Shown here: piece by piece, positions 16,926 to 58,274 of the stretch
How positions within the stretch are numbered: position 1 is the first letter of the stretch
How the letters are laid out: the number at the start of each line of letters is the position of its first letter
Source: Stegostoma tigrinum
Taxonomy: Eukaryota
DNA: 64,000 bases
Assembly: GCF_030684315.1 (NCBI RefSeq)
Contig: NC_081355.1
Coordinates: 28,607,316-28,671,315 of the forward strand
Direction: 5' to 3'
The notes under the pieces: model-generated
The model's database searches: none
What the model was told of the DNA's origin: nothing
Seen by the model: the letters and a program-made list of their open reading frames with translations, nothing else
Translations under genes and position numbers: made by a program

Positions 16926-16934
16926 CTGAATGAA

Positions 16935-17652
16935 GAAGCATAGTGTTGTGGTTGGTTGGCTCGCCAAGCTGGTTCATTGTTATTCTGCAGCTGTTTCACT
17001 ACTGTGCTGGGTAACATCATCAGTACCGCCTCCGATGAAACTCTGTGTTTTTCTGCCTGGTTTTTAAACTCTGAAGTCCACTGAGCTGGATTACCTTGCT
17101 TCTGGTTTTCCTTCGCAGTGGAGTGTATATGGATTTGAGTTCTATGTGTTTGATGGCTTTCTTCATGTAGTACCAGGTTTGTACAACCTCGCGTGCCTGT
17201 TTCTGCTTTGCTTGTCCAAGGATCTGGGCATTATCCCAGTTGAATTGGTGGTTCTCCTTATTCATGTGGATAGAGATGAGTGAGTATTGGTCGTGTCTTT
17301 TTGTAGCCAGTTGGTGTTCGTGTGCCCTTGTAGTTAATTTCCTTCCTGTTTGTCCGATGTACTGTTTGTCACAGTCTCTGCAGGGAATCATATATATGAC
17401 ATTGGCCCAGTCCATAGTTGGTACTGTGTCTTTGGTTCGGATGAGTAGTTCTTGTAGGAATAATGAGGGTTTGTGTGCCACTCTGATGCCCAGCAGTTGT
17501 AGGAATCTTATGATTAGTTCCAATGTGTTCCTGATGTCAGGTAGCGTGATGAGTGTGTCGGGGCGTGAAGTATCTTCCTGGCTTTTGTGTAGGCATCTTC
17601 TGACCAACCACGACACCCATAACCCGAGGTACGAATCTACTCCAAAACCTTA
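16935..17652 (-). mobile_element. Penelope-like element 3' fragment (GIY-YIG endonuclease; Penelope/Poseidon-type), with short inverted terminal piece
   Basis: ORF 17020-17616: NVIYMIPCRDCDKQYIGQTGRKLTTRAHEH; no Cys-rich linker before the EN. Degenerate hammerhead core at ~16990-17025 (-); plus-strand terminal-tail piece at ~17596-17652. Confidence 0.88.
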
Positions 17653-18429
17653 CTGAAGAAGAATAGGCTAAGAATTTGCTGTCATTTTCAGCCAACAGCA
17701 CAGAGATGTTCCAAGTCTTCCACCTCCTAATACCAGTTTTCAGCCAATTTGATTCATTCCACATGATATGAGAAGATGGTACTTGATGATATCCTAGCTC
17801 TGGTGCTGAAGATATTTGCTGTATAACTAACCATGCTGTTGGCAGGGCTTTTCCATTACAGCTATAATACTGGCATTTATCTGACAAAGTCAAAAATGAT
17901 CAGGTATATCCTGTCCACAAAAAGCAGAACCGTTGTCCAATCCAGTCATTTACCACTTTGACAGCCCACTCTTAATTATCAGCAAAATGATGGAAGATAT
18001 CCTCAGCAGTGCTCTTAAATGGCTCTTCAAGAGAGATAACTTGTTCACTGGCACTTAGCATGGATTTTGCCAAGGCTACCTGGCCCCAAGCCCTATTACA
18101 GTCTTGTTCCAAAAATGGATAAAAGAGCTGAATTCTAGATATGAGGTAACTGTCCTTGTCATTAGGGCAACATTTGATCAAACATTGCATCAAGGAGCCT
18201 TCAGAAAATTGATGCCACCAGGAATTGGCTAAACCTCTCCATTTGCTGCAGATGTACATGTGCACAAAAAAGATACTAATGGTTATTGAAGGCTGATCAT
18301 CTCAGCCCTTGAACATCACTGAAGGTATTCCTCTGGTTGTCCTACAGCCAACCAATTCCATGTACATTTGCCCTTCATGGGGTCAAAAATGTACATGTTC
18401 ACTGATAATTGCAGTATCCGTATAATAAA

Positions 18430-19225
18430 ATGGGCAGATCAGTAGCAAGTGGAATTTAACCCTCCTAGCTGGAAGAAGGAGCATGTAAAGGGAGTGTTGG
18501 ATGAATGAAAGGCCACTAGATTTCAGAGGGGTGCGTGTCCACAGATCCCTGAAGTTGACAGGACAGATTATTAGGGTTGACTTTTAAAAAATAACACATA
18601 CAGGACGCTAGCTTTTATCAGTTGTGGCATAAATTATAAGCGCAGGGAAGTCATGTTGAAACTGTACAAAACTTTGGTTAGACCACAGCCAGAGTATTGT
18701 ATGGAGGCTAGTCACCACATTTTAGGAAGTTATTCACATCAGAAGTGATGCAGAAGGGGTTCACCGAAATGTTGCCTGGGTTGGAGCACTTCAGTTATGA
18801 AGATCGGCTGATTAAGCTTGGATTGTTTTCTTTGGACCCCACAGAAGGTTGAGGGGAGAACCTGATAGAAGTGTATGAGATTGAGGGGCATGGACAGCAT
18901 GAATAGAAAGCAGTGGTACTCCTTAGTCAGAGGGTCAGTAACAAGGTGGCATCATTTTAAAGTGAAATGCAAGAGGTTTGGGGGGGGAATTTAAAGAAAA
19001 ACTTTAACTAAGAGAGCGGTGGGATCTGGAATGCACTCGTTTGGAGGGTAGTTGAGGTGGGAAACTTCACAACCTTTAAAAAGTACTTGAATAAGTGCTT
19101 GATGTGCATTCGTGGCCATGGGCCTAGTGTGGGAAAGTTGGACCAGGGTAGGTGGTGGTATATTTTTGGTGGTACAAACTTGATGGGCTGAGGGCACTCT
19201 TCTGCACTGTTTGATTGTAGATCCA
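18430..19225 (+). mobile_element. CR1 3' fragment nested in another LINE
   Basis: Remnants of CR1 RT C-terminus (gttagaccacagccagagtattgt...) and tail gggctgagggcactcttctgcactgt. Confidence 0.8.
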
Positions 19226-20717
19226 GTTCAATTTGCAATTCCCCAAATAATGGAATAGTCTGTTCCAATGCAGCAGGATCTGGAGAGCATCAAGGCTTGA
19301 ATTTAACTAACATTTGGGTCTTACAAGTGCCAAGGAATGATGGTCTCCAATGTGAATGCCTACCGGCTCCTCCTGATGGCTGCAGAGCATCATCATCTCA
19401 GAGTTCCACTATCAACATCCAAGGGCTTAGCATTGATTATTCAGATTGGTCTGTCTCTCACGTGAGCTGTCGCTGTCACTCTCCGCATCTCCTTTGTCTG
19501 CCCTCACTCTGCTAGAGCAGGTCTGAGGCTATGAGTTCTTAACAAGGTCTCATCACTTGATTTGCCTGGTATCCACAAGACACAAGTATATGATGCACTT
19601 AGGTGAAGGAGTTGAGCTTCGGTAGCAAACTAAATTAGAAACCACCCAAACCAAAAGAATCTATTTGATTTACACATCATCTGTCACCTTAAACGTTAAC
19701 TTTCTACCTCAGTGGTGCCCAATTGTAGAAATTTGCATTTACAAGACATATTACAACAACTTGCCAAGATTCCACATTCCTTAATACTTTACTACGTGAA
19801 GAGTTAACTGACAGCCCTAGTGTGTGTCTTGTTATGACATTACACAGTGATATATCCGCTGAGTATTCATTTGTGTGCATTTCCCCTTTTGATTAAAATT
19901 TATTTCCATTTTGACAGTAGTTAGTGATATTACGTCGGTATACGCAATGTGCACAATCTCATTTAATTAAGATCATCATGAAAATGCTGATCGCAACTCC
20001 AAAAAGCCGATGTTCAATGAAAATATTTGATCTTTTAACAGACTTAACAGATACTGGCAAAGTATGGTGCCTCATTCTTTTGTTTTATCTTCATTTCTAA
20101 TCTGTCTTCCAGTGCTCCTTGCTTCTGAATTCAAGACCTGAATGTGCCTTTTGGGGTGGCGGGGGGGAAACGTGTCACAGGAATTCAAACATTGCCTATG
20201 GTGATTGTGGATGTGTAATTCTGTTTTGTTTTCCTTTTATAATCGGTTACATCTAAACGGTTTGTGATTTCTATAATGCTGTTTTCTTTTGAACAGTTTT
20301 ACCAATATGGTTTAATTTTATACTGGAGTGCAAGGAATGATCTTTAGGTTTTCTTTGTAAAAGTCCTTCAGAATTTTTGTAACAGAGTGCACTTACAATC
20401 TCTGCTTCCATAAGCCCTTAGCTACTATCCAAAGCACACGTTTTAAAAACTTTATTCTGATGTCTACTCACAAGTAAATAAAATGAGCAATTATTAGCTT
20501 GGGAGTATTTTGAAATACCAAGCATCTTTGTGCTGGAGTTGCTGAAAGTAATTTGTCAGTTGTTACCTCACTACATGCTAGAAATCCCTTGGCTTGCATC
20601 CAATTTCATTCTAAGATGTTGAAGTTGAAGGAGAAAGTTTGTGCATTTCAGTGTGTGACTTGTGTTAAAGCACTGCAGAGACCTATCATCTTTCCTCAAC
20701 ATGTGTTTTATTTACAG

Positions 20718-20996
20718 GTTACAAAGGTTGGAGGTTTGCCAGAAGGTGTGTTGGATGTCTGGGAGTTCTTAAACAAACCTGAACATTGTCGATATACCTG
20801 GGACACTAAAACTAACAGTAACCTGAAAGCACAGTACACTTGCAGACTCCGCTTTGATCGTATGTTTTACAGGGCAGCCAGTGAAGGTCAGATAGTTCCA
20901 CAACAAATGACCCTTGTTGGACAAGACAAGTTGGATTGTGGGCGTTTTTGCAGTGATCACTGGGGGCTCCTGTGTGACTTTGATGTCATATTGTGA
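20718..20996 (+). CDS. TDP2: TDP2 terminal coding exon (TWDT, RFDR, SDH motifs; TGA stop)
   Basis: tttatttacag acceptor ends 20717. Encodes VTKVGGLPEGVLDVWEFLNKPEHCRYTWDT...LRFDRMFYR...LDCGRFCSDHWGLLCDFDVIL*, the TDP2 EEP-domain C-terminus. Confidence 0.97.
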   Translation, partial: VTKVGGLPEGVLDVWEFLNKPEHCRYTWDTKTNSNLKAQYTCRLRFDRMFYRAASEGQIVPQQMTLVGQDKLDCGRFCSDHWGLLCDFDVIL

Positions 20997-21632: not shown

Positions 21633-21771
21633 GAAATCTTATAAAAGAAAATCAGAATGCGTTTTATTTTCTCAAGAAAATTTTCATGAGTAAATGCAAG
21701 TTTTCTGTTTTGAAATAGTGCAATGATACAAAGTGATAGAAAAGCAAAGCACAGTAGTGTATAGGATGGAA

Positions 21772-22030
21772 CAAAACCAAAGTTGCTGGAAAAGCTCAGC
21801 AGGTCTGGCAGCATCTGTGGAGGAGAGAACAGAGTTAACATTTCGGGTCTGGTCACCGTTCCTCAGAACTGATGTTCTGAGCTCTTCCTCAGTTCTGAGG
21901 AAGGGTCACCAGACTGGAAACATTAACTCTGTTTTCTCCTCCACAGATGCTGTCAGACCTGCTGAGCTTTTCCAGCAACTTTGGTCTTGTTCCTGATGTA
22001 CAGCATCCACAGTTCTTTTGGTTTTTATTT
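21772..22030. mobile_element. Palindromic non-autonomous PLE derivative with 14-bp TSD and two hammerhead cores
   Basis: TGTATAGGATGGAA at 21758-21771 and 22031-22044; ~100-bp inverted arms; CTGAGGA..GAAA cores on both strands. Confidence 0.9.
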
Positions 22031-25000
22031 TGTATAGGATGGAAATTCCCTTTCTACAGCTGACAGGAGTCTGTGGTTCCATTGTTCTGTGTGGAAGGAA
22101 AGTCAGATGGGAGAGTATTTGCAAGGATACCAAGAGACTGAAACACTGAGAAAGAAAAGCATTCGCTAAAGCCTGAGACTTGTATTATCTGAACTTTCTG
22201 TAGCAGGTGTGATGTAACTGAATGCCAGCATACTTGCAGCATACAAGTTATCCCATCACCACTTAGTTATTAGTGAGAAAAAGTCTTGCTGAGGTCACTA
22301 AGCACAGAGTAAACAGCTTGCTCAAAGTTTATGTTCTCCCTCTGATTCTGAAGTCAACAGCAGTTATTTCTAAATGTGTTTTTAGTTTCCTGTTAGTGGG
22401 AGTTTAGGTTTTTTTAGACTGTAAGGGTTAAATGATATTTCTGCACTACAAGTAAAGGGCAGGTTTCAACATTGCATGTAGCAAACCTTATGAGGCTGTT
22501 GTCTCATTTTTTGGGACTTACAACTTCCATCAATGAGAGAGAATACATACAACTGGAGAATAACATGAATAATCCATAGCTTTCTATATATTGAACTGTA
22601 CTTAATTGTGGTATGTGGGTGTTGTGAGGAAGGCTGGCATTTAATGCCCGTTCTTAATTGGCATTGTGATGGCTGGGTCTTCTGACCAATTGTAGTCTTT
22701 TTGGTGAAGGTTGTTAGCATACTCACCCTGGGGGGTTGGGGAGGTGGGGAAGTGAGAAGTGACATCTTACTTCCAGATTATTTTTCTGCATGTATACACA
22801 AAGTGAAATCTTCCGTATTTTTCCTTGTTCTTGAATTTTCCTGAACTAATTTGTCTTTTTGAACCTCTAGGATTTAGAAATAAAGTTAGGTTTATATGTG
22901 ACGTGAATTGTATGGAATGGGGATTTCAACTGTTAATTATTTGGGTGGCCAGTCAGGCTGAGAAGGTATCAAATTTGGAATGGGCAAAATACATCTTGAT
23001 AGTTTGGTCAGGTGATTCTTAAAAGAATATGAATGAAATTGGTTAGTAGTGCAGAATGATAATCCATATTGGTTATTTACTGCATCAAGCAGGTTTGTAA
23101 AGGTGGCAGTTGTTGTAATGTTCATCAAGCCATTGCAAATTCTGATAAGGATGGTTTTGGAAATCTGTACTCCTGTGAAACTGACAAAGGTATTAATGTG
23201 TACTAGTACTTTTTAGGCTGCTACTTAATAATATCTTCTGGCAAATTGGTTGGAAATGGTGAAATATATGATTGATTGAATCTCTATCTTTGTAATTTAT
23301 AATATTAATAGGCAGAAGACCTGCCACCACCCGCTGAATAGAAAATTTCTGGATAAAGGGATCCATAACTGCCACAGGATCTTCTAGACAGTGTTGTAAT
23401 TCCTCCAGTGTGATGAATGCTATCACAACTCACTACAATAGTATGCTGGAAATCAAGCCCCACTATTTCTGGAGTCATCACAAAAAGTTAAAGATTTTAA
23501 AATAAAATGCACAAAATTCCCCAGTTTACCTGATTTTCAGACCCAAGTTGACAGAGAATTTGGACCAGATTTTTGTTCTTAACAAGAATTGCTATTTTAT
23601 TAGAAGTAATTAGACTCTAGCTACAGGTAAACAGTTATATGTTGGCATATAACACTACAAATTAAAAAATATCTGTTACAACCTCCCAATTGCTTCTGTG
23701 TGTCAATGTGCACACAAGCAGACGAGGTTATGAGCAAAGGAGAATTGAGAGGCAGGTCAGTGGTTCATATTCAAGGGTTTGTGAGATGGTTCTTTATGAT
23801 TCAAGTGCTGGTCAGCACATTGTGTTTCAGTTTTTTTTTCCCCAGATGCTTCCACTGGTTTGCAAGAGACCTAGGGTGGCTGGTTCACTTATACAAGATT
23901 TCTGAAGTGTCAGTTAAAATTGCAACTTACAACTGCTGAAGGCAAAATGAACTTGTTTTCTTTAGGTTTAAAATGGGTTTGACTGCAGCAAACGGAGAAA
24001 TTGGTTTCTGTTCTGGTGGAAGCCTGTACGCTTCTCTGTATCCTGTTCCAGCCCCAAGCTGTATCACAAAGTTGTTGACAGGCAAAAAGACTTTTGTCAT
24101 TGGTCTATAGACTAGTGACCAGTTATCAATGAATTTCTTGTTGCTACCCACCTTCATCTGTACATAGAATCCCTTGGCTTCAATTTGCCGACAACCACTA
24201 CAGGCCCCTGAAAAAAACTTGTTCAAACATGTTATGGAGTAGGTGGGACTTGAACCTGGGACTTCTGCCACCGCACCTCAAGAACCCCTGACACTTGTCT
24301 TTTGTACTTTTTAGTAGCAACTACCAGAACCTTTCAATTTCAAAATATAGCAGCCGACTGCTGTGAAAAGTTGTGGTTTGCCTTCCTCAGGTAGTTCTGT
24401 GCTATGAAAGAACTGTCAGAATAGTCAAATGCCTTGGTGCTTCAGGGACACCTGAGCAGAATCTCCTGTCAGCAATGTAGAGCTCCCTTCTTTCATTTTA
24501 AAACACAAAAAGGGGCTGGAGTAGTAATCAACGTGATCTAATTAAATGGCAGAGCAGACCTGATGATAGGAACAGGCCTCATCCTATTGCTATGTTTATA
24601 TCCTCTTCGCACCCTCACTTTGGCTGCAACCTCTAACCAGTCCATCAAGTCTTGTGCTCACTGGAATCTGTGAGCATCTGCAAGATCTGGACTTCACCTT
24701 GCTTTAAATCTGCTGTATTCACCCTGCCAGCCGCTGGCTTATGATCTCCTTCATATGCAGGGATTCACACCCAGCTTGCTTCTGGGCAGAGGACTGGGTT
24801 GGAAAACAAAAGATGTCAAATTTGAGCTTATGGACTTGCTGGCCAAAACTCATTCCTCCCAACTGTCAAATGAATGTTAGAATCGTTTAGTGTTTCTCTT
24901 TGCACAATACCGATTGATCTGCTGAATATGTCAGGTTTCGAGCTTGAGCAGTATTTGCTTTTGAAACAGGAAATGTAAAATGCGAACAGGAATGAGGGAT

Positions 25001-35900: not shown

Positions 35901-36057
35901 AGAGATAGGCTATCTAGACTTTCTTGGAAATTGAAACCAGCCTATTTTCATAAATGGGGAAAATGATTGATTAATTTCAGAGCATATAAAACAGTCAGCT
36001 GGCCCCACTTGTTTGTGGCTATGAACATTTTGTACTTTCTTCCTAGTAAGTCAACTT

Positions 36058-36180
36058 TGAGGAGCTGTTGTGGTGTAGTGGCAGTACGTCTGAGCCTGGA
36101 GGCCTGGTTCAAGTCTTGCTTGCTCCAGAAATGTGAAATAACATCTCTGAATAAGCTATTTGGAAAATATTTAGTAGCCA
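36058..36180 (+). mobile_element. Short tRNA-derived SINE remnant
   Basis: A-box-like tggtgtagtgg and B-box-like ggttcaagtc; related minus-strand copies at ~24215-24290 and ~34890-34985. Confidence 0.55.
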
Positions 36181-37465
36181 AGTTGGTGCATATTTGCCTC
36201 CACAGCAAATAAGCTACCCATCATGGCCCTCCTCCCATTTTATTCCATTTTACCTTATCATAAACTGACAGTCCCAGTCTTTGTATTTTGTAACGTTTGT
36301 GATCTTAACCATGGCAGTTGTCACCAGCACTTGAAGAAATAACATCGCTAAGCATTGCTGAAAATGCTCTTCATATGGAATGGCCTTAGGGTTACATGAT
36401 GTGGGGGATAGAGAGAGGTTATTTATGTTCTGAATTGTATGTTTCTTTTGCAAGGCGTAAGTTTTTTTAATGGACATTTCCATCATTGTAATTCACTATC
36501 TCTTTACTAGTTTTTTTCTGATCATATAGCGAAGGACACAAGATCTGGGGAATGGAGAATTTTTCATTTCAGGCATTCTTGTAAACTTGGTGATTCTTAA
36601 TCAAGTAAAGTTTATTCTTTATCCAACTGAATAGTCCTTTTTTTTATTCCAACAATAAGTGCCAATAGCATCTTTATGAAACATTATCAATCCATGCCAA
36701 ATGTAAGGCTATTTGTGTTGTAGACACATGCCCATGAAGAACTAACTTGCAACTGTGCAATTTAATTGTTGCAATGTAGTGTTTCCTAATTTTTACTTTT
36801 TAAATAGATTTGAATGTCTAAAGAGAGTGATATGTGCTGTTATCTTAAGAAGCAGTGCTGTGGCATGTTTTGGAAAAGTCTTTGGATAGAGAAGCAGCAT
36901 TAGCATTTGTAGCATCCAAAGAGAGCAGGGATATCAGAAGACCATCTCGCCATGTCTGTTTATAAAATTACAAAGCATCTGAACTTTGACATTTATTGCT
37001 GCTCTTTTATTCTCAATTGATCAAAATCCTGGAACTCCTCTAATTGTAGTGCGGCGGTACAAGAGATGGTTCATGGCCTCAATATCAATTGGCCTCGTCA
37101 GTGATGCGCACATCCTACAAACAACTAAAATAAAAGTCTGGAATGCAGTTACTGAAGGAAACCTGTGTTCTTAGTTGCATGACCATTGCATGGGATAAAA
37201 TGCCTTTCGCTATGCCTTTCAACATTTCCATCTGCACGGTGAACATTAATTTTCAGCAAAGTGGTTGTGTAACTATGTATAAATGACTAAATAAACACTA
37301 ACAATGTTGATCTTATTAATTTGTGCTTTGCACCTTTGAGCTGACAACTTTCATGTGTGATTGATTCTAGTGTTTCCAAAATTGCCATTGAAGCAAGATA
37401 AAGAAAAGTATACATGCCGTTTTAAAGGTTGCGCTGGAACTTGTTTCAAGCTTGACGCTGTGAAA

Positions 37466-37517
37466 ATGACCCACTTAAGATTTTCCCTCAGTGCTGTATT
37501 CCTATGCACCATTACAG
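37466..37517 (+). CDS. KIAA0319: KIAA0319 first coding exon (start codon + signal peptide)
   Basis: aaaATGA start (A at -3) encodes MTHLRFSLSAVFLCTIT-G, ending in phase-1 donor G|GTATGT that matches the phase-1 acceptor at 48819. Resembles the short hydrophobic human N-terminus ending ...VTIA/G. Exon 5' end possibly at the acceptor ttgattctag (exon from 37371). Confidence 0.8.
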
Positions 37518-37609
37518 GTATGTTACTTAAATAATGGATTGGTTTAAAATATAAAAAATGCTGGTAGCACTCAATTTATCTGGCAGTATCTGTAGAGAGC
37601 GAAAGGAAA

Positions 37610-37752
37610 CATCATCAGTGAGCCTCCGACGAAGCTCACTGATGATGTTACCTAGAATGGTGACGAAACGTCTGAAAACGAACCTTCCAGCTCAGCGAGC
37701 AAACTCACATCTAGAACCTCAACCTGAACTACAAATCTTCTCAAAACTCGCT
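37610..37752 (+). mobile_element. 143-bp PLE-terminal insertion with 12-bp TSD
   Basis: AGCGAAAGGAAA at 37598-37609 and 37753-37764; similar to the terminal region of the 17-kb PLE; sits inside an older PLE-derived remnant (~37545-37850). Confidence 0.88.
37636..37675 (+). ncRNA. Minimal type I hammerhead ribozyme motif (PLE-type)
   Basis: UCA-CUGAUGA-U-GUUACC[UAGAAU]GGUGAC-GAAA-C-GUC^UGA: conserved core boxes, 6-bp stem II, 3-bp stem I, loopless stem III; predicted cleavage after 37672. Confidence 0.78.
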
Positions 37753-38518
37753 AGCGAAAGGAAAGTTTATGTTTCAAGTCAATTTCCTTTTAACAGAGCT
37801 TCTGTTTCGATTTGAAATTTCTAGCATTTGTAGCACTTTGCTTTTTGCAATGGATTGGTTTATTTTCTGGTCATGTTTTTTTTCCAGGAAGTTATTTCTT
37901 AATTGCTATTTTATCAGTTCTCATATTTTTGAAGGTAGCTTTTTAGGTTTAACTTTGAAGATTTGTGCAGATTGTTTATATCAAACCAGTTAATGCATTG
38001 TTCATGATACACAAATAAAAGATGGACACTTGAAACATGTATCAGAGGGTGACCAATGACAAAACTACAACAATGTTAAACGCGACCCACAAATCACCAA
38101 TGTGATGTAGGTGCTTTTAGGAATTGATGTGGACAGTGAGTCAGGCTTGATTGCAGAACTCATTGTAGTAAGCATGATTAGAAAATATGTAAACTAATCC
38201 TCATCCACCTTCTCAGGTGCTATGACTCTCTGTGAGGGACACAAGTAAACAACACTGTTTTTCCACCTTCCTAACCCAGGTGTGTTGAGGTGAAATGAAG
38301 CATCACTAATGTTGCCGCAGCAATGAGATCAATTAACTTAAAAAAGGAAGGGTATTTGGGCCTGCAACCTTCCTGGTTTGTGAGGCACAGATTATTACTG
38401 CATAAGCACCTTGAAGCAGTACAAGAGTTGTTCATTTCTGTTGTTTAAAAAAAAAGCTGTACAGTAATGATAGTGCAGGACCACTGGTCTGTTTACAGAT
38501 GCTAACCTGCACTGAGTT

Positions 38519-41500
38519 GAATTGGCAGTGACCACATCTGCAGCAAGTGTTGGTTGCTGGAAGAACTCCGGATCAGAGTAAATGATCTGGAATCTGAGCT
38601 TCAAACTCAGCGGCACATCTGGGAGGGGGAGAGTTACCTGGACATTTTGTTTCAGGAGGCAGTCACACCCAGTAGATTAAATAACTCAAGTTCAGAAAGT
38701 GTTCAGGGACAAGGTGTGACTGTAAGTGAGGCAGGTAGGGGGATTCTGAGTTCAGGAGTGCAGGAGCCTCAGCCCTTGACCTTGAGCAACAGGTATGAGA
38801 TTCTTGCTCCCTGTACGGTTGAGGAAAAGGACTGTGGACAGGATGAGCCAGCTGACCATGGCACCATGGTGCAGAAGGTCATTCAATAGGGGGGAACAAA
38901 AAGACAAGTAGCTGTTAAAGGGGATTCTATAATTAGGGGAACAGATAGTATCCTATGCAAGTCGGATTGGGAGTCCCGCATGGTGTGTTGCCTGCCCGGT
39001 GTCAGGGTGCAGGACGTCTCCAACCGGCTTGAAAAGATATTGGAGGGGGAGGATCCAGTTGTTGTGGTCCACGTTGGGACTAACAACATAGGCAAAGCTA
39101 GGGTAGAGGACCTGTTCAGGCATTATCAAGCACAGGAAGGAAATTGAAGTGCAGGTCCTCAAGGGTCATAATCTCCAGATTACTGCCCGAGCCACGTGCC
39201 AATTGGCATAGGGATAAGAAAGTTAGGGAAGTAAACATGTGGCTAAGGGATTGGTGTGGGAAAGAGGGATTCCATTTCATGGGGCATTGGCATCAGTTTT
39301 GGAAGGGGGTGTATCTGTACTGTTGGGACGGTCTCCACCTGAACCGATCAGGAACCAGTGTTCTAGCGAAAAGGATAAATAGGGTAGTCAGTAGGACCTT
39401 AAACTAGTGAGTCGGGGGGAAGGGAAAGTGAAAGCGACAGGGAGTATGGAGTTAAATGGAAAGATAAGCAGCAGGATAGCATGTGTACAGGTGGGTTTAA
39501 GCTCGAGGCAGACTAGGAATACAGCAAAAGGGAAGGATAGCTTAAGACATCTTGGGATTTCCAACCTCTCTAATAATGATAAGAAAGCTAGCATTAAGGC
39601 ACTTTATCTAAATGCTCGTAGTATTCGCAACAAAGTAGATGAATTAACAGCACAAATCCTCTTGAATGATTATGATGTGGTAGGCATCACAGAGACATAG
39701 TTGCAGGGAGCTCAGGACTGACAGTTAAACATCCAAGGATTCACAACATATCAAAAAGACAGGGAGGTGGGCAGAGGGGGTGGGGTTGCCTTGTTAGTTA
39801 AGAATGGAATTAAATCTACGGCACCAAATGACATAGGGTCAGATGATGTGGAGTCTGTGTGGATGGATTTGAGGAACTACAAAGGCAAAAAAACTGTAAT
39901 GGGAGTTATGTACAGACCTCCTAACAGTGATCAGGACCAGGGGCGCAAGATGCACCGGGAAATAGAAAGGGCATTTCAGAAAGGCAAGGTCATGGTGATC
40001 ATGGGGAACTTCAAAATGCTGTGAATTGGATGAATAATGTTGCTGGTGCATCCAAAGAAAGAGAATTCAGGGAATGTTTGCAGGATGGCTTTTTGGAACA
40101 GCTTGTGATGGAGCCCACAAGGGAGCAGGCTATTCTGGACTTAGTGCTATGTAATGAGCCAGACTTTATAAAAGACCTTAAAGTAAGGGAACACTTAGGA
40201 GGCAGCGATCATAATATGGCAGAGTTCAGGCTGCAGTTTGAAAGAGAGAGGGCAAAATCAGATGTAATGGTGTTACAGTTAAATAAAGGTAATTACAGGG
40301 CCATGAGAGAGGAATTGACGAAAATCGACTGGAAGCAGAGCCTAGCAGGGAAGACAGTGCAGCAACAATGGCAGGAGTTTCTGGGTGTAATTGAGGACAC
40401 AGTACAGAGGTTCATCCCAAAGAAAAGAAAGATTATCCAGGGTGGGATTAGACAGCCATGGTTGACAAAGGAAGTCAGGAAATATATCAAAGAAAAAGAG
40501 ACAGCTTATAAAGTGGCCAAGAGCACTGGGAAATCAGAAGATTGGGAAGGCTCCAAAAACAGACAGAGGATAACAAAGAGACCAATAAGGAAGGAGGAGA
40601 TCATATATGAAGGTAGGCTAGCTAGTAATATTAGAAATGATGGTAAAAGCTTCTTTCAATACATAAGAAACAAACGAGAGGCAAAAGTAGATATTGGGCC
40701 GCTCCAAATTGATGCTGGAAGGCTAGTGATGGGAGATAAAGAAATAGCTGAAGAACTTAATAAGTACTTTATGTCAGTCTTCACAGTGGAAGACACGAGT
40801 AGAATGCCAACAATTAGGGAGAGCCAGGGGGCAGAGTTGAGTATGGTAGGCATTACAAAAGAGAAAGTGCTAGAAAAGCTAAAGGGTCTAAAAATTGATA
40901 AATCTCCTGGCCCCGATGGGCTACATCCTAGAGTTCTGAGGGAGGTGGCTGAGGAAATAGCGGAGGCTTTGGTCGTGATCTTTCAAAAGTCACTGGAGTC
41001 AGGGAAAGTCCCAGATGATTGGAAAATTGCTGTTGTAACTCCCTTGTTTAAGAAAGGATCAAGGCAAAAGATGGAAAATTATAGGCCGATTAGCCTAACC
41101 TCGGTAGTTGGTAAAATTCTAGAATCCATTGTCAAGGATGAGATTTCTAAATTCCTGGAAGTGCAGGGTCAGATTAAAACAAGTTAGAATTCTTTGAAGA
41201 GGTAACAAGTATGTTAGACCAGGGAAACCCAGTAGATGTTATCTATCTAGACTTCCAAAAGACCTTTGATACAGTGCCTCACGGGAGGCTGCTGAGCAAG
41301 GTGAGGGCCCATGGTGTTCGAGGTGAGCTACTGGCTTGGATTGAGGATTGGCTGTCTGACAGAAGGCAGAGAGTTGGGATAAAAGGCTCTTTTTCTGAAT
41401 GGCAACTGGTGACGAGCGGTGTCCCACAGGGTTCAGTGTTGGGGCTACAGCTGTTCACCTTATATATTAATGATTTGGATGAAGGGACTGGGGGCATTCT

Positions 41501-46044: not shown

Positions 46045-46305
46045 ATATGTGCAGGTGCCAGTGTTGGACTAGAGTGGACAAAGTCAGAAGTCACACGACA
46101 CCAGACTATAGTCCAACAGGTTTACTTGAAATCACAAGCTTTCGGAGCACTGCTACGGACTGTGGGAGGAAGCTAGAGCACCTGGAGAAAACATGAGGAG
46201 AATGTGAAGTCACTTCACCAGACAAAGGAGCAGTGCTTTGAAAGCTTGTGATTTCAAATAAACCTGTTGGACTATAACCTGGTGTCCTGTAAATTCTGAC
46301 TTTGA
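46045..46305. mobile_element. Palindromic PLE derivative (third lineage, GGAGC..GCTCC-GAAAGC core)
   Basis: Arms ~46081-46154 and ~46229-46304 are inverted; candidate TSD TGAT(T/C)AAATGAA at 46028-46039 and 46303-46314. Confidence 0.75.
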
Positions 46306-48818
46306 TCAAATGAAGTCACTGCCTCCAATAAAAGTTTGCAAGAACTTGGAGTCAGATGAATATGAAATTTGAGGAGAAATTTAGAGCTGGAGAGAGAGGG
46401 ACAAATCAAGGAGCATTTGAATATGAGGACAGGGATTTTAAATTTGAGAAGTTGCGATGTTGGAAGCCAGTGTTGATTAAAAAGATTGGGGTGATGTGTG
46501 AGCGGGATGTGATGCAAGAAAGGATAGAGATAGCTATCTGATAGGAGTTCTGAGGAAGGGTCAACGGACCAGAAATGTTATCTCCGATGCTGCCAGACAT
46601 GCTGAGCTTTTCCAGGAACATTTTTCGTTCATGATATGTAGCATCAGCAGTTCTTTTGGTTTTTATTTGGTGATAGCTGAAGTTTACAAAGTGTGGATGT
46701 TGAAGTTGAGATGGCATGCTTAAAGTTTTCGGCGATTGGTGAGTAGACATAGTTGCAGTTTTAAATGGCAAGTTTCCCTGATCCCACTGCCTAATTATGT
46801 GGTTAATTGCAGACTTGCAGAACACTCTTCTCACCCAACTAAGCCATATTACATGAATTGACCACAATGCTGTTCCTCCTTTCCCTCCTCGTGTGTTCCA
46901 ACATCAATCTAAATGACCTCAGCAACTGCCCATCTAAAATATTTGAATACTGCCCCAGTCCCATTTCCTGGGTTCAGGGATACTAACGTGCAGGCAGGAT
47001 TGCTGCATCATTGCATTTCCAAAGACAGAATGCACCTCAAGGAAATTCGACACTTTTCCAAAGTCATGGTTTTAGAAAGAAATTGACTATAATGTCTTAA
47101 TGAATGCTTGCAACAATATTAGCTCTTAGGATTAAAGCAATAAAGAGCCAGCATTTTTGTAGCACCTTTCAAGACCTTGGGATGCCCAAAAACATTTCAT
47201 AGTCATGAATTGCATTTATGAGTTCCTCTAGTATTGGAAATACAGTAGTCAATTGTGCACAACAAGTCAGCAGAAATAGCCTTGAGATAATGATCAAATA
47301 ATCTATTTTAGTCATATGTTTGCGAGACCAACATTGACTCAGACATCTGGGGAAATTTCTGTTGTAGTTTGACATAGGTTTGTAGGAACTGGAAAGTTAA
47401 ATTGGGCCTTTGTTTAATGTCTCATCTGAAAGACAGCATTTCCAATTGTTCCCAGTGCCCTCAGTACTTCACTGGGGCTTCAACCTAGATTGTGTGTTCA
47501 GTTCTGTAGAGTGGGGATTGAATCAACAATTTTTTGATTCCAGTGCTAGCACTGTTCCATGTCTAGCACAGATCGTGGGATTAAATTTGACAATAAATTA
47601 GCAATTTAATAGTAAAAGAAAGTACTAATTTAATGTGCACAACTGAATGGACTGCCAGAACGCTTATGTTCCAATGGGGTCCCCTGCAGTTTGCATTCAA
47701 TACTTATAAATACTACAGTGATCATAGTAACAAAGCTGAAGACCCAGAGAAGGGGTAAATTCTGAATTGACTAATTTACTGATTAGGAAGATGATTTTTA
47801 AGTAATGTACGAATATGTATGTCAGGTAATGATATCTGTTTGAAAATGGGGAAACTTGATTGTAAAATTATATTATCATTTGATAATGTGAGTTGAATGT
47901 GCCATTTCACTGGAGAGAAGTGGTTACAGTATCAAATAAAATGTTGAAATAAACAAACTCCAAAGATCATTAGCCTCAAGAGTCACTCTGAAGTTGTATA
48001 AAGTGCTAGTGAAATACTAGTGAACCATCTGTGATCTCCAGAGTGAATAAAAGAAATTCGAACAGTAGGAAGAATTTAGAGAAGGACAAATTTAGGAAAG
48101 AAACTTTTTATTTAAATAATGAAGGAATTAATGAGTTACTTCAAGTGAAGATTTCAAAAAAAAATTCAGAGCACAACCGCTCATCGAAGAAGCCACGAAT
48201 AAATCTAAGAAGTTAGTGTCCAGAAAATTCTGTGCAAGACATTTTATAAATTTCCAAAAATTGCAAACAAGCAACGTTCCTGTGAACTTACCCCAGGATC
48301 AGAAGATTGTAACTTTGGCCATACTCCAGAGACTTGAGACGGATTGTGCTATTTGAGGAAATGCTGTAGTATTGGAGGTGCTGCCTTTTCAATGATATAC
48401 TCAACTTGCCTGGTGAGGATGGAAAGAAAAGAATAGGCCAGTTCTCCCCAGATATTGGTTCCCCACACATCTTCAAAACAAGATATCTGGTTCTTGCCTT
48501 GTTAATGTTTGTCGGGAACCTATGTGTGTGATTCCTGTGTTTCCGCATTACTAAAGGTATTTAATTTAGCTGTCCTGAGGTTAAAAAGCATGTCATATGA
48601 ATGCAAGTTCGTTCTTTCTTTTGCTGCCAGGAGTGCAAAGTTGGGAAATTACCTATAAGGTCATCCTGCAATAGTTCCCCCTAAATGTAATCTCAGCACT
48701 AGTACATCAAACACATTCTCCAAGAGGTCACTGTAGTAACGCAGCCCCGTATGCTGTCAAATGCCTGTAAATTTTTAACAGTCTGTAATTTGAATTGTGA
48801 TTGATAATGTTTTCACAG

Positions 48819-49573: not shown

Positions 49574-50505
49574 GTAATTCTTAATTGTTTTTTGTTGTTT
49601 TATGTAATTCTTCTTTGCAGTTTGACCTCATTTCCCCCTTCATTGGGTTTCAGTGTTGTGCAAGAGACATAGCAGAGATAATTTGAGTAAGATACTACTG
49701 GATCCTAACCCAAATTGCTAGGGTACTGATTAAAATTAGAGGATAGGATGATTTGGGTGGAGGTGTGGTCTGGAAAGAGCAATAATTCTTCCTCTTGCTC
49801 CTGCCTTCCATAAGGTAGAACCTGTAACACTGCTGGAACTGGGGAAATCTTGGGAAATTAAGCAGTTTGAAGTTTCAGAGGTGGGCAACTAAGCAGCATA
49901 CATATTTTGTTTCAATTACTGGAAATAGCCTTCCTGGAAAAGTTTTAAAAACATGGCAGAGTCATTAAAGTGCCCCAACAGTTAGGGCTCCAGTTCTAAA
50001 TTGTTGTTGTGCAATTTGAAACTGGGTTGCAACGATAGTACTACCTTCATGGTAGGCAGTAGTCTAATACTGGAAAATTAACATTCACTCCATTGGATGT
50101 ATGTGGCATGGTGCAATTCAGAAAATGGTATCTGGACTCTTGGCTCCTCTTTGTTGAGCTCCTGACCCCAACCAACTGTTTAGGGAATCATCCAGGAGAC
50201 AGCTAATTGCTCCTCACATCATGTTGTTGAAACTAACGGAGATCTTCCATTGGTAGTTGTACTTTCTGACAACGACCCAATGATAGAAAAAGGTGGTGGT
50301 TACGAAGCAGGCCAACTGCACAATTCAATGGCTGCACAGAAAGAAGTAAAATTAGCCTCTTTGATCTTTCAGAAACCAAGGATTCCGTCCAAAGTGCTTT
50401 AGAGCCAATGAACTACAGTGTAGTCACTGCTGTAATTTAGGAATGGGGCAGACAATTTGCATTTAGCACCTTGCCACAAATGATAACACAACAGTCATCA
50501 GATCA

Positions 50506-53500
50506 GAGATATTAAGAACTGCCGATGCTGGAGTCAGAGATAACACACTGTGGAGCTAGAGGGTCACAGCAGGTCAGGCAGCATCGGAGGAGCAGGAAAG
50601 TTGGTGTTTCAGGCCAGGGTCTGTCTTCAGAAATGGGGGAGGGGAAAGGGAGATCAGAAATAAATAGAGGGAGGAGAGGTGGGACTGGGGATTGTAGGTT
50701 TCATGGTGATAGATGAGCGCAGGTAGGCAGTGGTGGGGATTGGTCAGTGAGGTGGGAGAGAAGATGGACAGGGAGGAGGCAGGAAGAGAGGGAGGGTTGG
50801 TCATGGGATGAGGCCAGAGGTGGGGAGATTTTGAAACTGGTAAAATCCACATTTAGTCAATTAGGCTGTAGGCTCCCAAGGCGGAATATGAGGTGCTGCT
50901 CCTCCAGTTTCTGGGTGGCATCATTGTGACACTAGAGGAGGCCCAGTATGGACATGTCACCCAGGGAGTTGGTGTGGGAGTTGAAATGGTTTGCGACCGG
51001 AAGGTGTTGTCGTTTGTCGCGAACAGAGCGCAGGTGCTGTACAAAGCAGCCTCAGAGCCTGGCCTCACCGATGTAGAGGAGGCCACACCAGGAGCAGTGG
51101 ATGCAGTAGACAACGTTGACGGGTGTGCAGGTGAACCTCTGTCTGATGTGGAATGGTTTTTTAGTTCCTTGGATGGAGGTGAGGGAGGAGGTCTCGGGGC
51201 AGGTGTAGCACTTCCTGCTGTTACAGAGAAAAGTGCCGGGGGTGGTGGGGCTAGTGCCGAGTGTGGAATGGATGAGGCAGTTGCGGAGGGAATGGTCCCT
51301 TCAAAAGGCAGATGGGGGTGGGGAGGGAAATATATCTCTGGTTGTGGGGTCGGATTGCAGGTGGCGGAAGTGGCAGAGAATGATACGTTAGATACGAAGG
51401 TTAGTGGGGTGATATGTGAGGACAAGGAGGACTCTGTCTTTGTTTTTGTTGCGGGAAGGGGATGTGAGGGCAGAGGTGCAGGAAACACAAGAGATGCGAT
51501 CAAGGGCCTTTTCAACCACCGAAGGGAGTACATTGCAGTCCTTGAAATAAGAGGACATCTGGGATGTTCAAGAATGGAATGCCCCATCGTGGGAGCAGGT
51601 GCAGTGGAGGCGGAGGAATCGGGTGTAGGGGATTGCACTCTTGCTGGAAGGTGGGTGAGAGGAGGTGTAGTCCAGGGAATGGTGGGTTTCGGTGGGCTTG
51701 AAATAGATGTCGGTTTCGAGGTGGTCACCAGAGAAAGAGACAGAGGTGCAGGAAGGAAAGAGAGGTATCTCGAGATGGTCCAGGTGAACTTGAGGTTGGG
51801 GTGAAAGGTGTGAGTAAAGTTGATGAACTGTTCAAGCTCCTTGTGGAAGCATGAGGCAGTGCCGATACACTCATCAATGTTGCGGAGCAAGAGTGGGGGA
51901 TAGTGCTAGTATAACAGCGGAAGAGGGACTGTTCCACGTACCCTACAAAGAGGCAGGCATAGCTTGGGCCCCTCCGGGTTCCCATGGCCACCCCCTTAGT
52001 CTGTAGGAAGTGGGAGTAGTTAAAGAAGAAGTTGTTAAGGGTAAGGACGTGTTTGATTAAGCAGATGAGGGTGTCGGTGGGGGCGTGGGGATCTGGTTGG
52101 GCCTGAAGGAGAAGAAGAAGCAAAGGGCCTTTAGATCATCTGCATGGGAATCCAAGTATATAGGTGTTTCAGGCCACGGTCTGTCTTCAGAAATGGGGGA
52201 AGGGGTAGAGAGATCATGGTGAAGATGAGGTGTTAGGAGCCAGGGAATTGGAGGAGGTGGAGGATATAGGTGGTGTCCTAGATGTAGGTGGGGAGTTCTT
52301 GGATGGAGTGGGGGGAGAAAACAGAGGCGAGGTAAGCAGAGATAAGTGCAGTTGAGCAGGAGCAGGCAGAGACAATGGGTCGGCTGGACAGTTAGGTTTG
52401 TGGATTTTGGGAAGGTGATAGAATTGGGCAGTGTGGGGCTGAGGAATAATGAGTTTGAGGCTGTGGGTAGGAGGTCACCTCAGGTGATGAAGTTGTGAAT
52501 GGTTTGTGAGATGATGTTTTGGTCAGGGGTGGGGTCATGATCAAGGGGGTGATAGGAGGTGTCAGAGAGTTGGCACCTGACCTCAGCTATGTAAAGGTCA
52601 GTGCATCACACCACTACTATGCCCCCTTAATCTGCAGGTTTGATAGTGAGGTTAATGCGGGAGTGGAGAACTGCCCGTCCCTCCATTTCCTCACATATCA
52701 TCCCGCTAACCTTTGTAACCAATGTATCCTTCTTTGCCATTTACAATCCAACCCCACAACCGGGCATATATTTTCCTCCCCACTCCTACCTCCTCCGCTA
52801 CTCCCTCGTCCACTCCACACTCAAGCCCTACCACCCCGGCACCTTTCCCTGCAACTGCAGGAAGTCTACACCTGCCCCCACACCTCCCCTCTCACCTCCA
52901 TCCAAGGAACCCAACAAACCTTTCACATCAGACAGAGGTTCACCCGCACATCGGTCAATGTGGCCTATTGCATCTGCTGCTCCCAATGTGTCCTCCTCTA
53001 CATCAGTGAGACAAAGCGGAGGCTCAGAGACCACTTTGTAGAGCACCTGTGCTCGGTTCATGACAAATGACAACACCTTCCAGTTGTGAACCACTTCAAC
53101 TTCTCCTCCCATTCCCACTCCCTGGGTGACATGTCCATCCTGAACGTCCTCCAGTGTCACAATGATGCCACCCAGAAACTGGAGGAGCAACACCTCATCT
53201 TCCACCTTGGGAGCCTACAGCCCACCTGGCCTAAGTGTAGATTTTACCAGTTTCAAAATCTCCTCGCTCCTGTCCGCATCCCATGAGCAACTCTCCCTGT
53301 CATCGCCGCCTCCTTGACCTGACACAACTGTCCGTATTCTCCCACCTATCTGCCCCTCCTACCTCACTGACCCATCTCCATCACTCCCTACCTGCATTCA
53401 CCTATCATCAGCCCACCTATCTTCCCCAGCCCCACCCCTCTTTTCTCTATTTATTTCTGAGATCCCTTCCACTTCCCCCATTACTGAAGAAGAGTCCAGA

Positions 53501-53577
53501 CCCAAAACTTCATCCTTCCTGATCCTCTGATGCCTCCTGGCCTGCTGTGTTCCTTCAGCTCCACAGTGCGTTGTCAT
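50506..53577 (-). mobile_element. Neptune-like Penelope element, 5'-truncated, with inverted 3' copy; splits a DeuSINE
   Basis: Minus-strand RT (QTKGVAMGT..GPSYACLF) and GIY-YIG remnants at 50510-52640; plus-strand EN/3' copy at ~52670-53577; 13-bp TSD AGTCATCAG(A/T)TCA at 50493-50505 and 53578-53590. Confidence 0.9.
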
Positions 53578-55854
53578 AGTCATCAGTTCATCTATTTTAC
53601 GTCTACTTGAGGGATATCTTTAGCTCAGGACCTGGGTGGATACTTCAGCTCTTCTTCAAAATAATGTCAATAACGGGCCATTTTAAGGTGGAATTCAGTT
53701 TAACATTTCTTCTGAAAGATTGACAATCAGGCAGTGTTACTCTCCCTCAGGTATCCCCGTAGTCCCCAGCCTGTCGTTTACTGCCCTAGAATGGGTTTTG
53801 AACACAAAATGCGCTGATTTAGAGGTCTGAGTGATATCATGGAGCCAAAATTGGAGTTTGAGAAAAGGGTAACAAACAGAATGTGTCCATAACTTTAATG
53901 AATGGGTCTCAATTTCTCCAGTTTGATTATAGAATTGTAGGACATTGCACATTGTTGAACCCAATCCATGTTATGTGTGAATTCATCCATTGCATCACTT
54001 CTGCTTGTGTTAGCAAAAAGAAAGCTTATTATAAACACAACTTTAAGAACTAGAAAGGGATTCCAATCAATGTTATTTATAACATTTGTGGATTTTGATT
54101 TTAATTTCTTTATGAACTAAATTCAAGTGACTTTGACTTCATTTCTTTTCAAATTTTTGCTGACACCAGTGATCTGATATTGGTTGCTGACTGCATGTGC
54201 TCACCACAGTTATTTTCAACAGCACATGCATACATGCATGTGCAATATTAAGCTGATTTTTAATTATAAATTAGAATAAAAATTCCCTTTTTGTTTTGTA
54301 CTTTATTTTCCTCACCCAACATATTCTTTCATTAAAATGTGTTCATTAGTTTTTTGTCTGGTATTTGTCATACTTCATTTAAATAAATTTGAGAGGTAAT
54401 GCTGATGTGCATGCTGTTGAGTGTCAGCAAGTGCAGTCTTTTTTTAAAAGTTTCCTTCCTCTCCTGAGGAATGGACTTTTAGCTTATGTTTCCACAAGGA
54501 CTAGCCATTAAAGAGAACATGTCCCAAGAATGGGCTTACATATGAGAAAATGGGGAGGGGCTGAGAGGTTTAGGATGAGGAAATGCCATGGTGGAATTGG
54601 TAGACAACGGTTTTGAATTTGATTCATTTGGAAACAGGGTGGCAGAACTTGTCATTGAAGATGCATGTAAAGAGTGAAGCCAGTTGATCAGTAGGGAATC
54701 AAGGATTATGGAGAAAAACCAGGAAAGGGAACGTGAGGAACATTGGATCAGCCATGATCCTATTGAATAGTGGAGCAGATTTGAGGGGCTGAACAGCCAA
54801 CTCCTGTGCCTATTTCTTATGGTCCAATTTAGAATGTGATTGTCGACCTTTTGATCAGAGATGAGATTAATAGGTGGAGTGGATGAGAGTCATCAAGGAA
54901 TTCTTAGAAATAGTAGTATCTGAAAAATAATCGAAGTATCTTACCAGTGTGTGAAAAGCATGAGAATGGAAATGGGCCATGTCCTATGGGTGGCAATAGG
55001 GGCTCTTATGCTACAAATGATATGTAGTCAGATGGGAAAAACTACAAGTTCATATTGAGTGACATAGAAGGGGATAGGAATCAGTTGCAGGAGTTAAAGA
55101 TACTGGCTTCTATGCCAGATTTTAGGATAGAGAAATTTGTGACATACACAATGTCTCATGTCTGAAAACCAAACAATCTGATTGTGTGGAAGCCTCAACA
55201 GAGTACTAGAGCTGCAGGCTTGGTCACGACCAATAAATATGTGAAGTCGATGCAGTGAGGGAAAGGATGATGTTGCTGAAGGTGTGCTAGCTGGGTTCAA
55301 ACAGATGGAAATAAGGTTGCCTCACCAAGCCATGGATTGGGAAAGGATGGTATAGTTAATAATGGTGAATGCTGCAGGGCAGCTGAGGAAAGGAAAGAGG
55401 CATGTAACAGCACAGTCAAGGCAGATACAACTTTTGACCATGGCAAGGAATTTTTCTCTGCTGTGGGGAGAGGCAAATTGGAAGTATTTAAAAAGAAAGA
55501 GAGAGTCTGCAGCATTTTGGGTAGCAAAACATGGCACATATTTATTTTCAGACATTTCTGTTCCAAGACACATTGTTTGTCACTGCCACATAGATTAGGG
55601 AGTACCTGAATAGCATCCGCCCATACAAACCAAAACATGTAACATAAAAATGTTCTTGCTATAGAGTGCTGACATACAATGTTACAAGGTACACCATGGT
55701 AGATCAATCCTAGAGAAAAATGGGCAAGTAATTCACTAGTTAGTACTCATCTACAAAAGCTGGCCTCTACATTTTACCTTTGTTCTTTCAGAATGCATGA
55801 TAAAGGATGCTGTGTTTCTCAGCAAGTAATTGCACTTTTCCCTGCCTTTGCCAG

Positions 55855-56047
55855 GAATACGTATTTCCATCAAATTCATCACATGTTGAAACACTGACTG
55901 CAACACTGATCCCAGAAGGAAGCAGCTCTGTGTTTGCACACCGGCAGAAATCTGGAGAAGGCATCCAAATGATAACTCCCAGTGCTGAGAGTTCACTGAC
56001 TTCACAGCCCACTCCCACAGAGACATTAACAGTCGCTACGCAACAAG
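55855..56047 (+). CDS. KIAA0319: KIAA0319 Ser/Thr/Pro-rich stalk exon preceding the PKD domains
   Basis: Strong acceptor ttttccctgcctttgccag, donor G|GTACTA; 193 nt, phase 0 to 1, in frame with the previous exon. Encodes EYVFPSNSSHVETLTATLIPEGSSS...SLTSQPTPTETLTVATQQ. Confidence 0.75.
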
Positions 56048-58240
56048 GTACTATGCTGTTTTTGTATTTCAGCTGAAAGGATGAACTGCTGTTCTAATGT
56101 CATGTTTGTATTGCCATTGGTTTTAATGGAATTATAACCAGCTATTGGACATGTGGTCAGGAGAATAGTGGGAAGCCAACAACAGGCTGCAGAGTTCATA
56201 GAATTTACGGCACAGAAGTTGATGATTCTGACTACATTTCCTGTGCTTGTTCTTTGAAACAGCCATTCAATTCGTGTAATTCTCTTCCTTGTTCATTATC
56301 TGAGGTTAAATATTTCCCTTTTGCGTATTTATACAGTTTTATTTTGAAGGTTGATATTGACTCTGCCTCCATCATTTTCAGGCCACTAATTCCGGATAAT
56401 GACATCTCATTATTTAGCATTGCTCTCCCTTTGGTTCAGCTGCCAGTTATCTTCAATCTGTGTTGTCTGGTTACTGACCCTGCTGTCAATAGAAACTGGT
56501 TTTCCCTTTCTACTTATTGAAACACTTCATAATTTTGAGCACCTCAGTTAAATATCCTCCAAACCTTCTGTACTGGTTTGAAGGGAACAAATGGCATTAC
56601 CCGTGGAAGTGAAGCTAATTTGAATGTTGTCTGAAATTTGAAAATTGATTTTGGTGAAAAGGAAAACCTTGAACATGAAAAATCTGAATTGAAGGAAACA
56701 ATGATGGACAGAAACAAACTCTTTTTTGCCTTGTAGCATCATTCATTTTGCCGTGCATTCACTCCTACCTTCCACCTAACTTTTTTCCATTTGCCTCTTT
56801 TTCCTGCCTCCTCCAGCTCCCTGCCTCCCACCTTTCTCCTGGCCCCAGTTAGAATAGCTCAGTTCAGAAATGGTTCTTGGTACTAGCAGATGATTACTAG
56901 TATAGCACACAACTTTTCAGGATCTCGGGTGATCATGATGTTTTGTTGTTCAGGTGGAGCTCTGGCTAATTGGTCCATCTGTTAAGGACACTTTGGGGGG
57001 AAAATTAGCTGATATTGTCATATTCTGAAGGCAAATAAAGTCTGTTCATTTGAGGAAGCTTTCTGTGGATTTGGCTGCTGCTGTAAATCCTCCCGTCCTG
57101 GGAGAAGACCCAACTTATCAGGATCTGACAAGAGATGGTTGACCTCCTTTCTCTGTTCTTCTACTCTTGACACAATGAAGTGAAATTTCTATAGTGTGAT
57201 GGGAGAACAGTAAATGAAAGAAGGCTATGATAATTTAGTGCTTGTTTGTCTTGTCTACCCACTCAGTATCTTTTAAATGAACGTTATGTCTGGCTAATAT
57301 TAAACCTGCATTCTGTTTCATGGTGCCTATAGTGCCACCATTTCTGATTAGTTCACTGGTTAAAAGCAAATGTATATCCCACTCCCAAAAGGAAAGGTTT
57401 CATCCTGATGTAGCCATCAGGGATCTCTGTCTCCTTGCTGCTAATACATGTTATTTAACATGCAAGCTGCATTATGTAAAGCTTGCACCTTACACTGCTT
57501 CTAAATATATTGCACATTGTATTTTGAAGAGTCAGCTTAGATATGTTGGTTAGGACATTGGAACTATTCACCTGCTGTTTGCACACTGTCATGCAATCTA
57601 TTACATCCACCTGAACAAATAGATAGGCTTTGGACTTAACATGTCTTTTGAACAGTGGCACCTGCAGCAGTGCAGCATTCCCTTAATATGTCACCAACGT
57701 GCTAGCAAAGGCTCATAGAATTGTAAAGCACTTAAGAAACCTGTATGCTCCATTGTAGTTGGGCTGACACTTCAGAAGTGCTCTTCAATTAGCCAAATGC
57801 TCTTTTTCCCCATAGTCCTCCAAAAATTTTGTTCCAGATTTTCTTTCAAATGTTACCAGAAATCTGTTCCCATCAGCCCTTTGAGACATTCCAGAATATG
57901 AGAAGTCACTGTATTTACACAAAGAGAACTTCTCCATCTTCCTCTGTTCTTTTGGCAATTATCTTTAAAGCTGTGCATTTCCTCTGGTTGCCAACTGACC
58001 CCTCAGATTATGTACTGATATCTCTGTAGTCAGGATGAACCTATGTTTCTCTGAGCCAGAGGTGAATATAATAACATTGAGTCATATTGACATTTATGTA
58101 GGTCTGTATACTGCATAAGTGTTGTAAAGAAAGAAAACGTAAACAACCATTTTACAGTTGCTCAGACATATTCCTCAATGTCAATAAAATGTGAGGCTGG
58201 ATGAACACAGCAGGCCCAGCAGCATCTCAGGAGCACAAAA

Positions 58241-58274
58241 GCTGACGTTTCGGGCCTAGACCCTTCATCAGAGA
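58241..58274 (-). ncRNA. Minimal hammerhead motif in PLE terminal repeat
   Basis: Reverse complement CU-CUGAUGA-A-GGGU[CUAG]GCCC-GAAA-C-GUC^AG. Confidence 0.7.

Follow-up and report, generated by a model that had tools for sequence, protein, structure and literature searches.

A truncated Penelope-like insertion in a KIAA0319 intron of Stegostoma tigrinum carries a hammerhead motif predicted to be silenced by its own inverted copy

A 143-bp insert with a 12-bp target site duplication (TSD), located inside an older repeat of a KIAA0319 intron, was found to be, with high confidence, the truncated end of a high-copy Penelope-like element (PLE), in which a hairpin formed by the element's own inverted copy, likely made at insertion, covers a hammerhead ribozyme that is predicted to be silent. 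The insert is one of very many Penelope-type stubs, a real feature with an ordinary origin. The features are collected in Table 1, with positions given along the window, that is, the whole stretch of 64,000 nucleotides that was analyzed.

Table 1. Features of the insert, its host repeat and the adjoining exon.
Feature	Position	Strand	Basis
KIAA0319 first coding exon (MTHLRFSLSAVFLCTIT-G)	37466..37517	+	donor GT at 37518; tblastn, reading frame and homologue N-termini
14-bp direct repeat flanking the older host element and likely its TSD, left copy	37533..37546	+	exact copy at 37849-37862
Older decayed Penelope-type end of another family	37547..37848	-	long arm antisense; short arm 37798-37848 possibly sense tail
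Left TSD copy, AGCGAAAGGAAA	37598..37609	+	exact repeat; 3' end matches element antisense at 5/6 bases
Inverted arm, antisense of the element from just upstream of the hammerhead into the core	37610..37635	-	loose-end consensus; related ORF-bearing copy 17010-17043
Small natural hairpin (4-nt loop) preceding the hammerhead, at which the palindrome turns	37622..37637	-	fold of minus strand 37608-37637; parent-like context
Part of the pLTR in sense orientation, with tail, from a high-copy Penelope-like family	37634..37753	+	contigs recruited in four runs; 70% over 70 nt to 16955-17024
Minimal type I hammerhead	37636..37675	+	sequence, folding and features compared with PMC4209133
Open 36-codon frame from helix II, likely first codons of the parent ORF	37645..37752	+	same layout as the anole element (PMC11167929)
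AC-rich tail, the 42 nt separating the two 3' ends of the family	37712..37753	+	loose ends with mixed flanks
Right TSD copy, AGCGAAAGGAAA	37753..37764	+	exact repeat; 37600 adjoins 37756 in a contig of organism B
14-bp direct repeat flanking the older host element, right copy	37849..37862	+	exact copy of 37533-37546

The original prediction of a 143-bp insert with a perfect 12-bp TSD was borne out with exact coordinates, and AGCGAAAGGAAA was the sole exact 12-mer recurring 100–200 nt downstream among 63,780 window positions. Presence or absence in a related organism, a check that had been proposed together with that prediction, gave a negative answer, as the insert was missing at the orthologous site in one contig of organism B. 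In this contig (record 1, 1,032 nt) positions 37350-37600 and 37756-37844 were contiguous, with 251 and 89 letters on either side of the junction, and the absent 155 letters equal the insert plus one TSD copy (143 + 12). In the flanks, 37 of 475 letters differ between organism B and the window (about 8% divergence). Contigs covering the flanks were obtained from organism B, and none from organisms C and D. Since the contig shows the empty site, the insert is read, from this one contig of one relative, as a lineage-specific, recent mobile insertion. Regarding polymorphism, both junction flanks were without differences in run X4, and no empty-site joint was present among the joints listed for this run, which is possibly the source of the window and whose contigs drop variants.

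The sequence of the insert recruited 10,079 contigs in run X4 and 1,215, 16,179 and 13,932 in the other three sequencing runs, with nearly all of the depth on the insert, although these contig counts do not equal copy numbers. The insert differs from the X4 family majority at no fewer than three sites and contains seven CpG, with an observed/expected ratio of 0.99 vs. 0.26 for the window. Each of the four CpG bases in or beside the core is retained in 80–91% of the family depth, and an intact core is therefore expected in a young copy. Loose ends with mixed flanks were found behind 37711 (160, 154, and 175 contigs in X4, X16, and X20) and behind 37753 (147, 449, and 448 contigs, respectively), so that three of the four runs contain two family 3' ends separated by 42 nt, which is the two-end arrangement of EN+ Penelope-like elements, in which the tail has 30–40 nt.

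Further features are shared with the EN+ insertions of the Penelope/Poseidon type described in excerpts of PMC3846280, PMC8557442 and PMC11167929, namely a pLTR with a hammerhead, an ORF start at helix II and a TSD. For the anole element, the accessible part of PMC11167929 reports an ORF beginning at helix II and priming 111–118 nt in; here, the insert ends 109 nt from the ATG of the open frame that starts at helix II. The insert is, by contrast with a typical EN+ insertion, very short and without an ORF body. At 70% identity over 70 nt, the insert aligns to 16955-17024, a related copy at the end of a GIY-YIG-like fragment, 16955-17649, which itself ends in a GIY-YIG-like frame with a weak Pfam match below the cut-off (E 0.0034) and a match to another window frame at E 5e-9. 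An RT-coding parent of the insert family was not seen in the window, and the nearest ORF link is this 70%-identical relative. Taken at the level of sequence, the insert is assigned as a 5'-truncated Penelope-like retroelement end consisting of pLTR and tail. Moreover, no tandem copy of the hammerhead unit was detected in 36500-39000 or in the window, the insert being a single unit; no tRNA was found in 36000-40000, and hence no sign of a tRNA-SINE head; and no sense copy of the family was present nearby, the nearest related sense copy being a decayed one at 5423-5496.

The hammerhead core is complete and lies on the sense strand of KIAA0319, as had been predicted, with the boxes and stem II at the expected positions. 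It comprises CUGAUGA (37639-45), an extra U (37646) and GAAACGUC (37665-72), which contains GAAA (37665-68) and GUC (37670-72), with the predicted cut after 37672. Helix II (37647-52/37659-64) has 6 bp including one G-U, and helix I (37636-38/37673-75), which was missing from the parts originally listed, has only 3 bp. The core pattern matched four times in the window vs. 0.01 expected. The CUGANGA, GAAA and UH core with palindromic 15.2-16.2 and G10.1-C11.1 is that of a minimal PLE hammerhead. In detail, the motif shares with the metazoan PLE hammerheads, as far as these are described in the available text of PMC4209133, the full core, the extra base between 9 and 10.1, G10.1-C11.1, the palindromic C15.2-G16.2 and the lack of loop 3, and it departs from them in its 3-bp helix I, its 6-bp helix II and the inverted arm covering the core; helix I is given in the same excerpt as 4–5 bp in Schistosoma mansoni families and 2 bp in Drosophila virilis. 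The Rfam search of the window gave nothing at gathering level, and Hammerhead_3 reached only 15.8 bits vs. a cut-off of 48.5. Weak Rfam matches to miRNA and snoRNA, far below the cut-off, were considered to be due to chance, and a reading as a miRNA precursor was dropped. The assignment to the Penelope-type minimal hammerheads was right, but the accompanying statement that these cleave mainly as dimers was too strong: in the portion of PMC4209133 at hand, monomers did not cleave and dimers cleaved at a low level, and in that of PMC11167929, cleavage required the protein of the element and RNA-seq ends were absent from the cut site.

The position of the insert in the intron after the KIAA0319 start exon was likewise upheld. 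The first coding exon matches residues 1–20 of whale shark KIAA0319 at 80% (tblastn) and is spliced in frame to the KIAA0319_N exon at 48819, giving an N-terminus that agrees with the shark KIAA0319 homologues; the Pfam KIAA0319_N match in the window begins at 48794. Over 110 residues, the nearest proteins, from whale shark and Chiloscyllium punctatum, match at 98% and 95%, respectively, in keeping with a carpet shark as the likely source. The insert lies 80–92 nt from the donor of this exon, with the hammerhead on the sense strand. Upstream of KIAA0319, 14205-20996 contains exons of an endonuclease/phosphatase-family gene (Pfam PF22669). We take this gene to be TDP2, the neighbour of KIAA0319 in human.

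When the insert was removed, its flanks aligned without a break across the junction to copies at 99-167, 21779-21876 and 61171-61241, which identified the surroundings as an older element. Against shuffled sequences, the alignment of the long arm was not equalled in 1000 trials, and that of the short arm was weak (17, 62, and 288 of 1000). This older element is also present in organism B, and the young insert is nested just downstream of its decayed hammerhead, on the opposite strand.

The complementarity of 37608-23 to 37634-49, on which the idea of an inhibitory hairpin had been based, was confirmed as an exact reverse complement. Its origin was traced with the family contigs. In run X4, the loose ends before 37634 (48 contigs) show that the native upstream sequence of the family is the reverse complement of the arm, and contigs that align to the arm extend past 37635 into the antisense of sequence further upstream (11 contigs). 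By comparison with its family, the arm thus proves to be the 5' part of the element copied in antisense, overlapping the sense copy. Additionally, nine of the 15 joints listed, out of 23, connect the arm region (37628-37636) with sense sequence that is taken up again at 37671-37732, with varying breakpoints; copies sharing the exact junction of the insert align without a joint and are invisible to these counts. As the joints resume at or past the cut site, other copies bear arms without a ribozyme to block. The joints of four contigs, from the arm to 37671-37674, were also considered as an in vivo cleavage footprint; this was dropped, the 37636-37671 joints lying on a diagonal of GACGAA microhomology.

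Arms of this kind have precedents. In excerpts of PMC3846280, an inverted pLTR overlaps the direct one by 15 bp, with palindromes at the junction and TSDs of 8–10 bp, and an inverted 5' copy is called common in those of PMC8557442 and PMC8969392. The insert is similar to the EN+ insertions of these sources (PMC3846280, PMC8557442, PMC11167929, as far as accessible) in its head-to-head inverted 5' copy, overlap, junction palindrome and nesting in a Penelope-type element, and it departs from the textbook layout in its 26-nt arm, whose start lies within the hammerhead rather than at 37711, where the pLTR usually ends. In the available text of PMC11167929, both strands are cut and extended, two start sites give the tail, and the anole protein primes from both strands in vitro. 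A literature search on shark Penelope elements in introns, intronic hammerheads with antisense control and Penelope twin priming found no matching case.

The blocking hairpin is thus likely an ordinary by-product of insertion, and the following course is proposed. The element's endonuclease would make a staggered cut, and one target strand would prime reverse transcription at the tail end, 37753, copying back through the hammerhead. The other target strand would likely anneal to the RNA inside helix II, where the left TSD end matches the element antisense at the arm start in five of six bases, and prime a 26-nt copy ending at the natural hairpin. The two copies would then be joined at the hairpin, where they overlap by 2 nt. 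During synthesis of the host pre-mRNA, the arm would emerge ahead of CUGAUGA and is predicted to capture it; splicing would then likely remove the intron, leaving the gene unaffected. L1 twin priming yields an inverted 5' segment with target-end microhomology, a short junction overlap and a TSD. The insert resembles L1 5' inversions in all four, but it belongs to another element class and has no poly(A), and its mechanism is inferred from one junction.

Two other origins of the arm were weighed. The palindrome may have arisen by self-priming, with the nascent antisense strand folding back at the natural hairpin instead of two strands being primed, the origin being otherwise the same. The junction lies exactly at the hairpin with the 4-nt loop, and the part of PMC3846280 available attributes palindromes at junctions to self-priming, with an antisense strand as template; however, the match of five of six bases between the TSD end and the arm start suggests that the target strand primed the arm, and a 26-nt strand alone cannot supply the sequence beyond 37649, which makes fold-back a possible but rather doubtful route. 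It is very unlikely that the insert corresponds to one unit of a hairpin element or retrozyme that replicates non-autonomously and has the arm as a constant component: it is indeed short, TSD-bounded and non-coding and belongs to a very large family, but the listed loose ends at 37634-37637 run into native upstream sequence, the listed joints vary in breakpoint, and there is no tandem array, whereas non-LTR retrozymes consist of tandem hammerhead units and the insert is a single one.

The predicted sequestering of the catalytic box by the arm was reproduced by folding, in which CUGAUGA had an unpaired probability of at most 0.002 with the arm. The hairpin 37604-53 folds at -31.1 kcal/mol (z -9.8) and the whole insert at -48.4 kcal/mol (z -5.2). 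RNA folding, another of the checks proposed at the outset, indicated that the arm alters the fold: with it, the hammerhead-compatible fold is worse by 22.4 kcal/mol (fraction about 2e-16), or 24.5 in the intron context, and without it the difference is still 6–8 kcal/mol (fraction 3e-6 to 5e-5), or 5 kcal/mol in a parent-like context, these energies covering secondary structure and leaving tertiary contacts, dimers and proteins outside the model. The hammerhead fold is disfavoured even without the arm, since CUGA can be paired by a UCAG that the element itself contains further downstream. The pairing probability of the 3-bp helix I was 0 with the arm, 0.003–0.05 without it and 0.26–0.30 in the parent-like context. 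The element's own downstream sequence, within 37634-37700, also pairs with GCUC as well as CUGA in the predicted fold, so that members of the family may natively adopt another fold in which the core is hidden.

The ribozyme is likely silent by accident of insertion, because in the model the hairpin dominates, helix I has 3 bp, and such motifs are reported to be inactive as monomers or protein-dependent. The original prediction had also envisaged two mutually exclusive folds, acting as a switch or a built-in inhibitor. Its view that the ribozyme is kept off probably holds, but that of a purposeful arrangement is not supported, in view of the gap of 22–24 kcal/mol, the nature of the arm as the element's antisense, the empty site in the relative and the same layout in other inserts of the window. 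A switch needs folds of comparable energy and some conservation, and neither was seen, since one state dominates by 22.4–24.5 kcal/mol. A domesticated regulatory switch cutting the KIAA0319 pre-mRNA when the hairpin opens would fit the sense orientation, the intact core and the closeness to the donor, and conserved intronic hammerheads do exist in amniotes (PMC6155905, available text). The insert is like these RECK-type hammerheads in being type I, intronic and on the sense strand; according to the same text, however, those are conserved across lineages, and the insert is recent, minimal and missing in one contig of organism B, whose flanks have diverged by only about 8%. With the energy gap, the 3-bp helix I, the lack of a helix III loop and no sense copy of the family nearby apart from the decayed relative, such a switch is hardly credible.

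Other inverted structures of the window were compared with the insert. TSD-like repeats bound five of the seven tested (three exact, two with one mismatch), and none was found for 46070-46310 and 58183-59672. At 21758-22044 there is a head-to-head Penelope-type insert of another family with an exact 14-bp TSD and a fold of -197 kcal/mol, where the hammerhead remnant is covered in full by the pairing of the 105-nt arms. Another intact core on the sense strand, at 59584, lies opposite a 177-nt inverted arm of 99% identity. Both intact sense cores in the KIAA0319 introns of the window (37639 and 59584) therefore face an inverted arm, as would be the case if the arm were a by-product filtered by selection, with sense intronic copies bearing a free hammerhead being harmful and purged and the survivors enriched for blocked ones; tandem retrozymes are, in addition, reported as depleted from Xenopus introns in the accessible part of bioRxiv 2026.07.22.740005. 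This is highly improbable, as there are only two cores, inverted arms are common whatever the strand, the hammerhead-compatible fraction without the arm is already minute, and monomers are reported inactive (PMC4209133, excerpt). There is a correspondingly slim chance that the inverted arms of Penelope insertions form a safety catch, on which the survival of sense-strand copies with a ribozyme in shark introns would depend; if true, this would show that host pre-mRNA can be cleaved in vivo by minimal hammerheads.

As a product of insertion, the insert may serve as a presence/absence marker, and it offers a clean example of an insertion junction, with TSD, empty site, microhomology and tail. 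If blocked hammerheads were favoured in sense-strand introns genome-wide, it would also matter for the in vivo activity of minimal hammerheads.

Several further repeats were observed in the window. Regions 58183-59672 and 61746-63985, downstream of the KIAA0319 exon 55852-56046, belong to a young Penelope-type family with intact minimal hammerhead cores at 58244 (-), 59584 (+) and 61811 (-), inverted arms of 96–99% identity and GIY-YIG-like frames. Additional inverted Penelope-type structures are found at 5294-5501 and 50493-53590, with repeats of 12 and 13 bp, respectively, and one mismatch each. Perfect 155-bp inverted arms, 96 nt apart, at 16520-16925 adjoin the Penelope-type fragment 16955-17649; they matched no repeat family recognised here, and may reflect either an inversion-duplication of recent date or an error of assembly. 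Finally, 46070-46310 forms a hairpin with 76-nt arms and a piece of another repeat in its loop.
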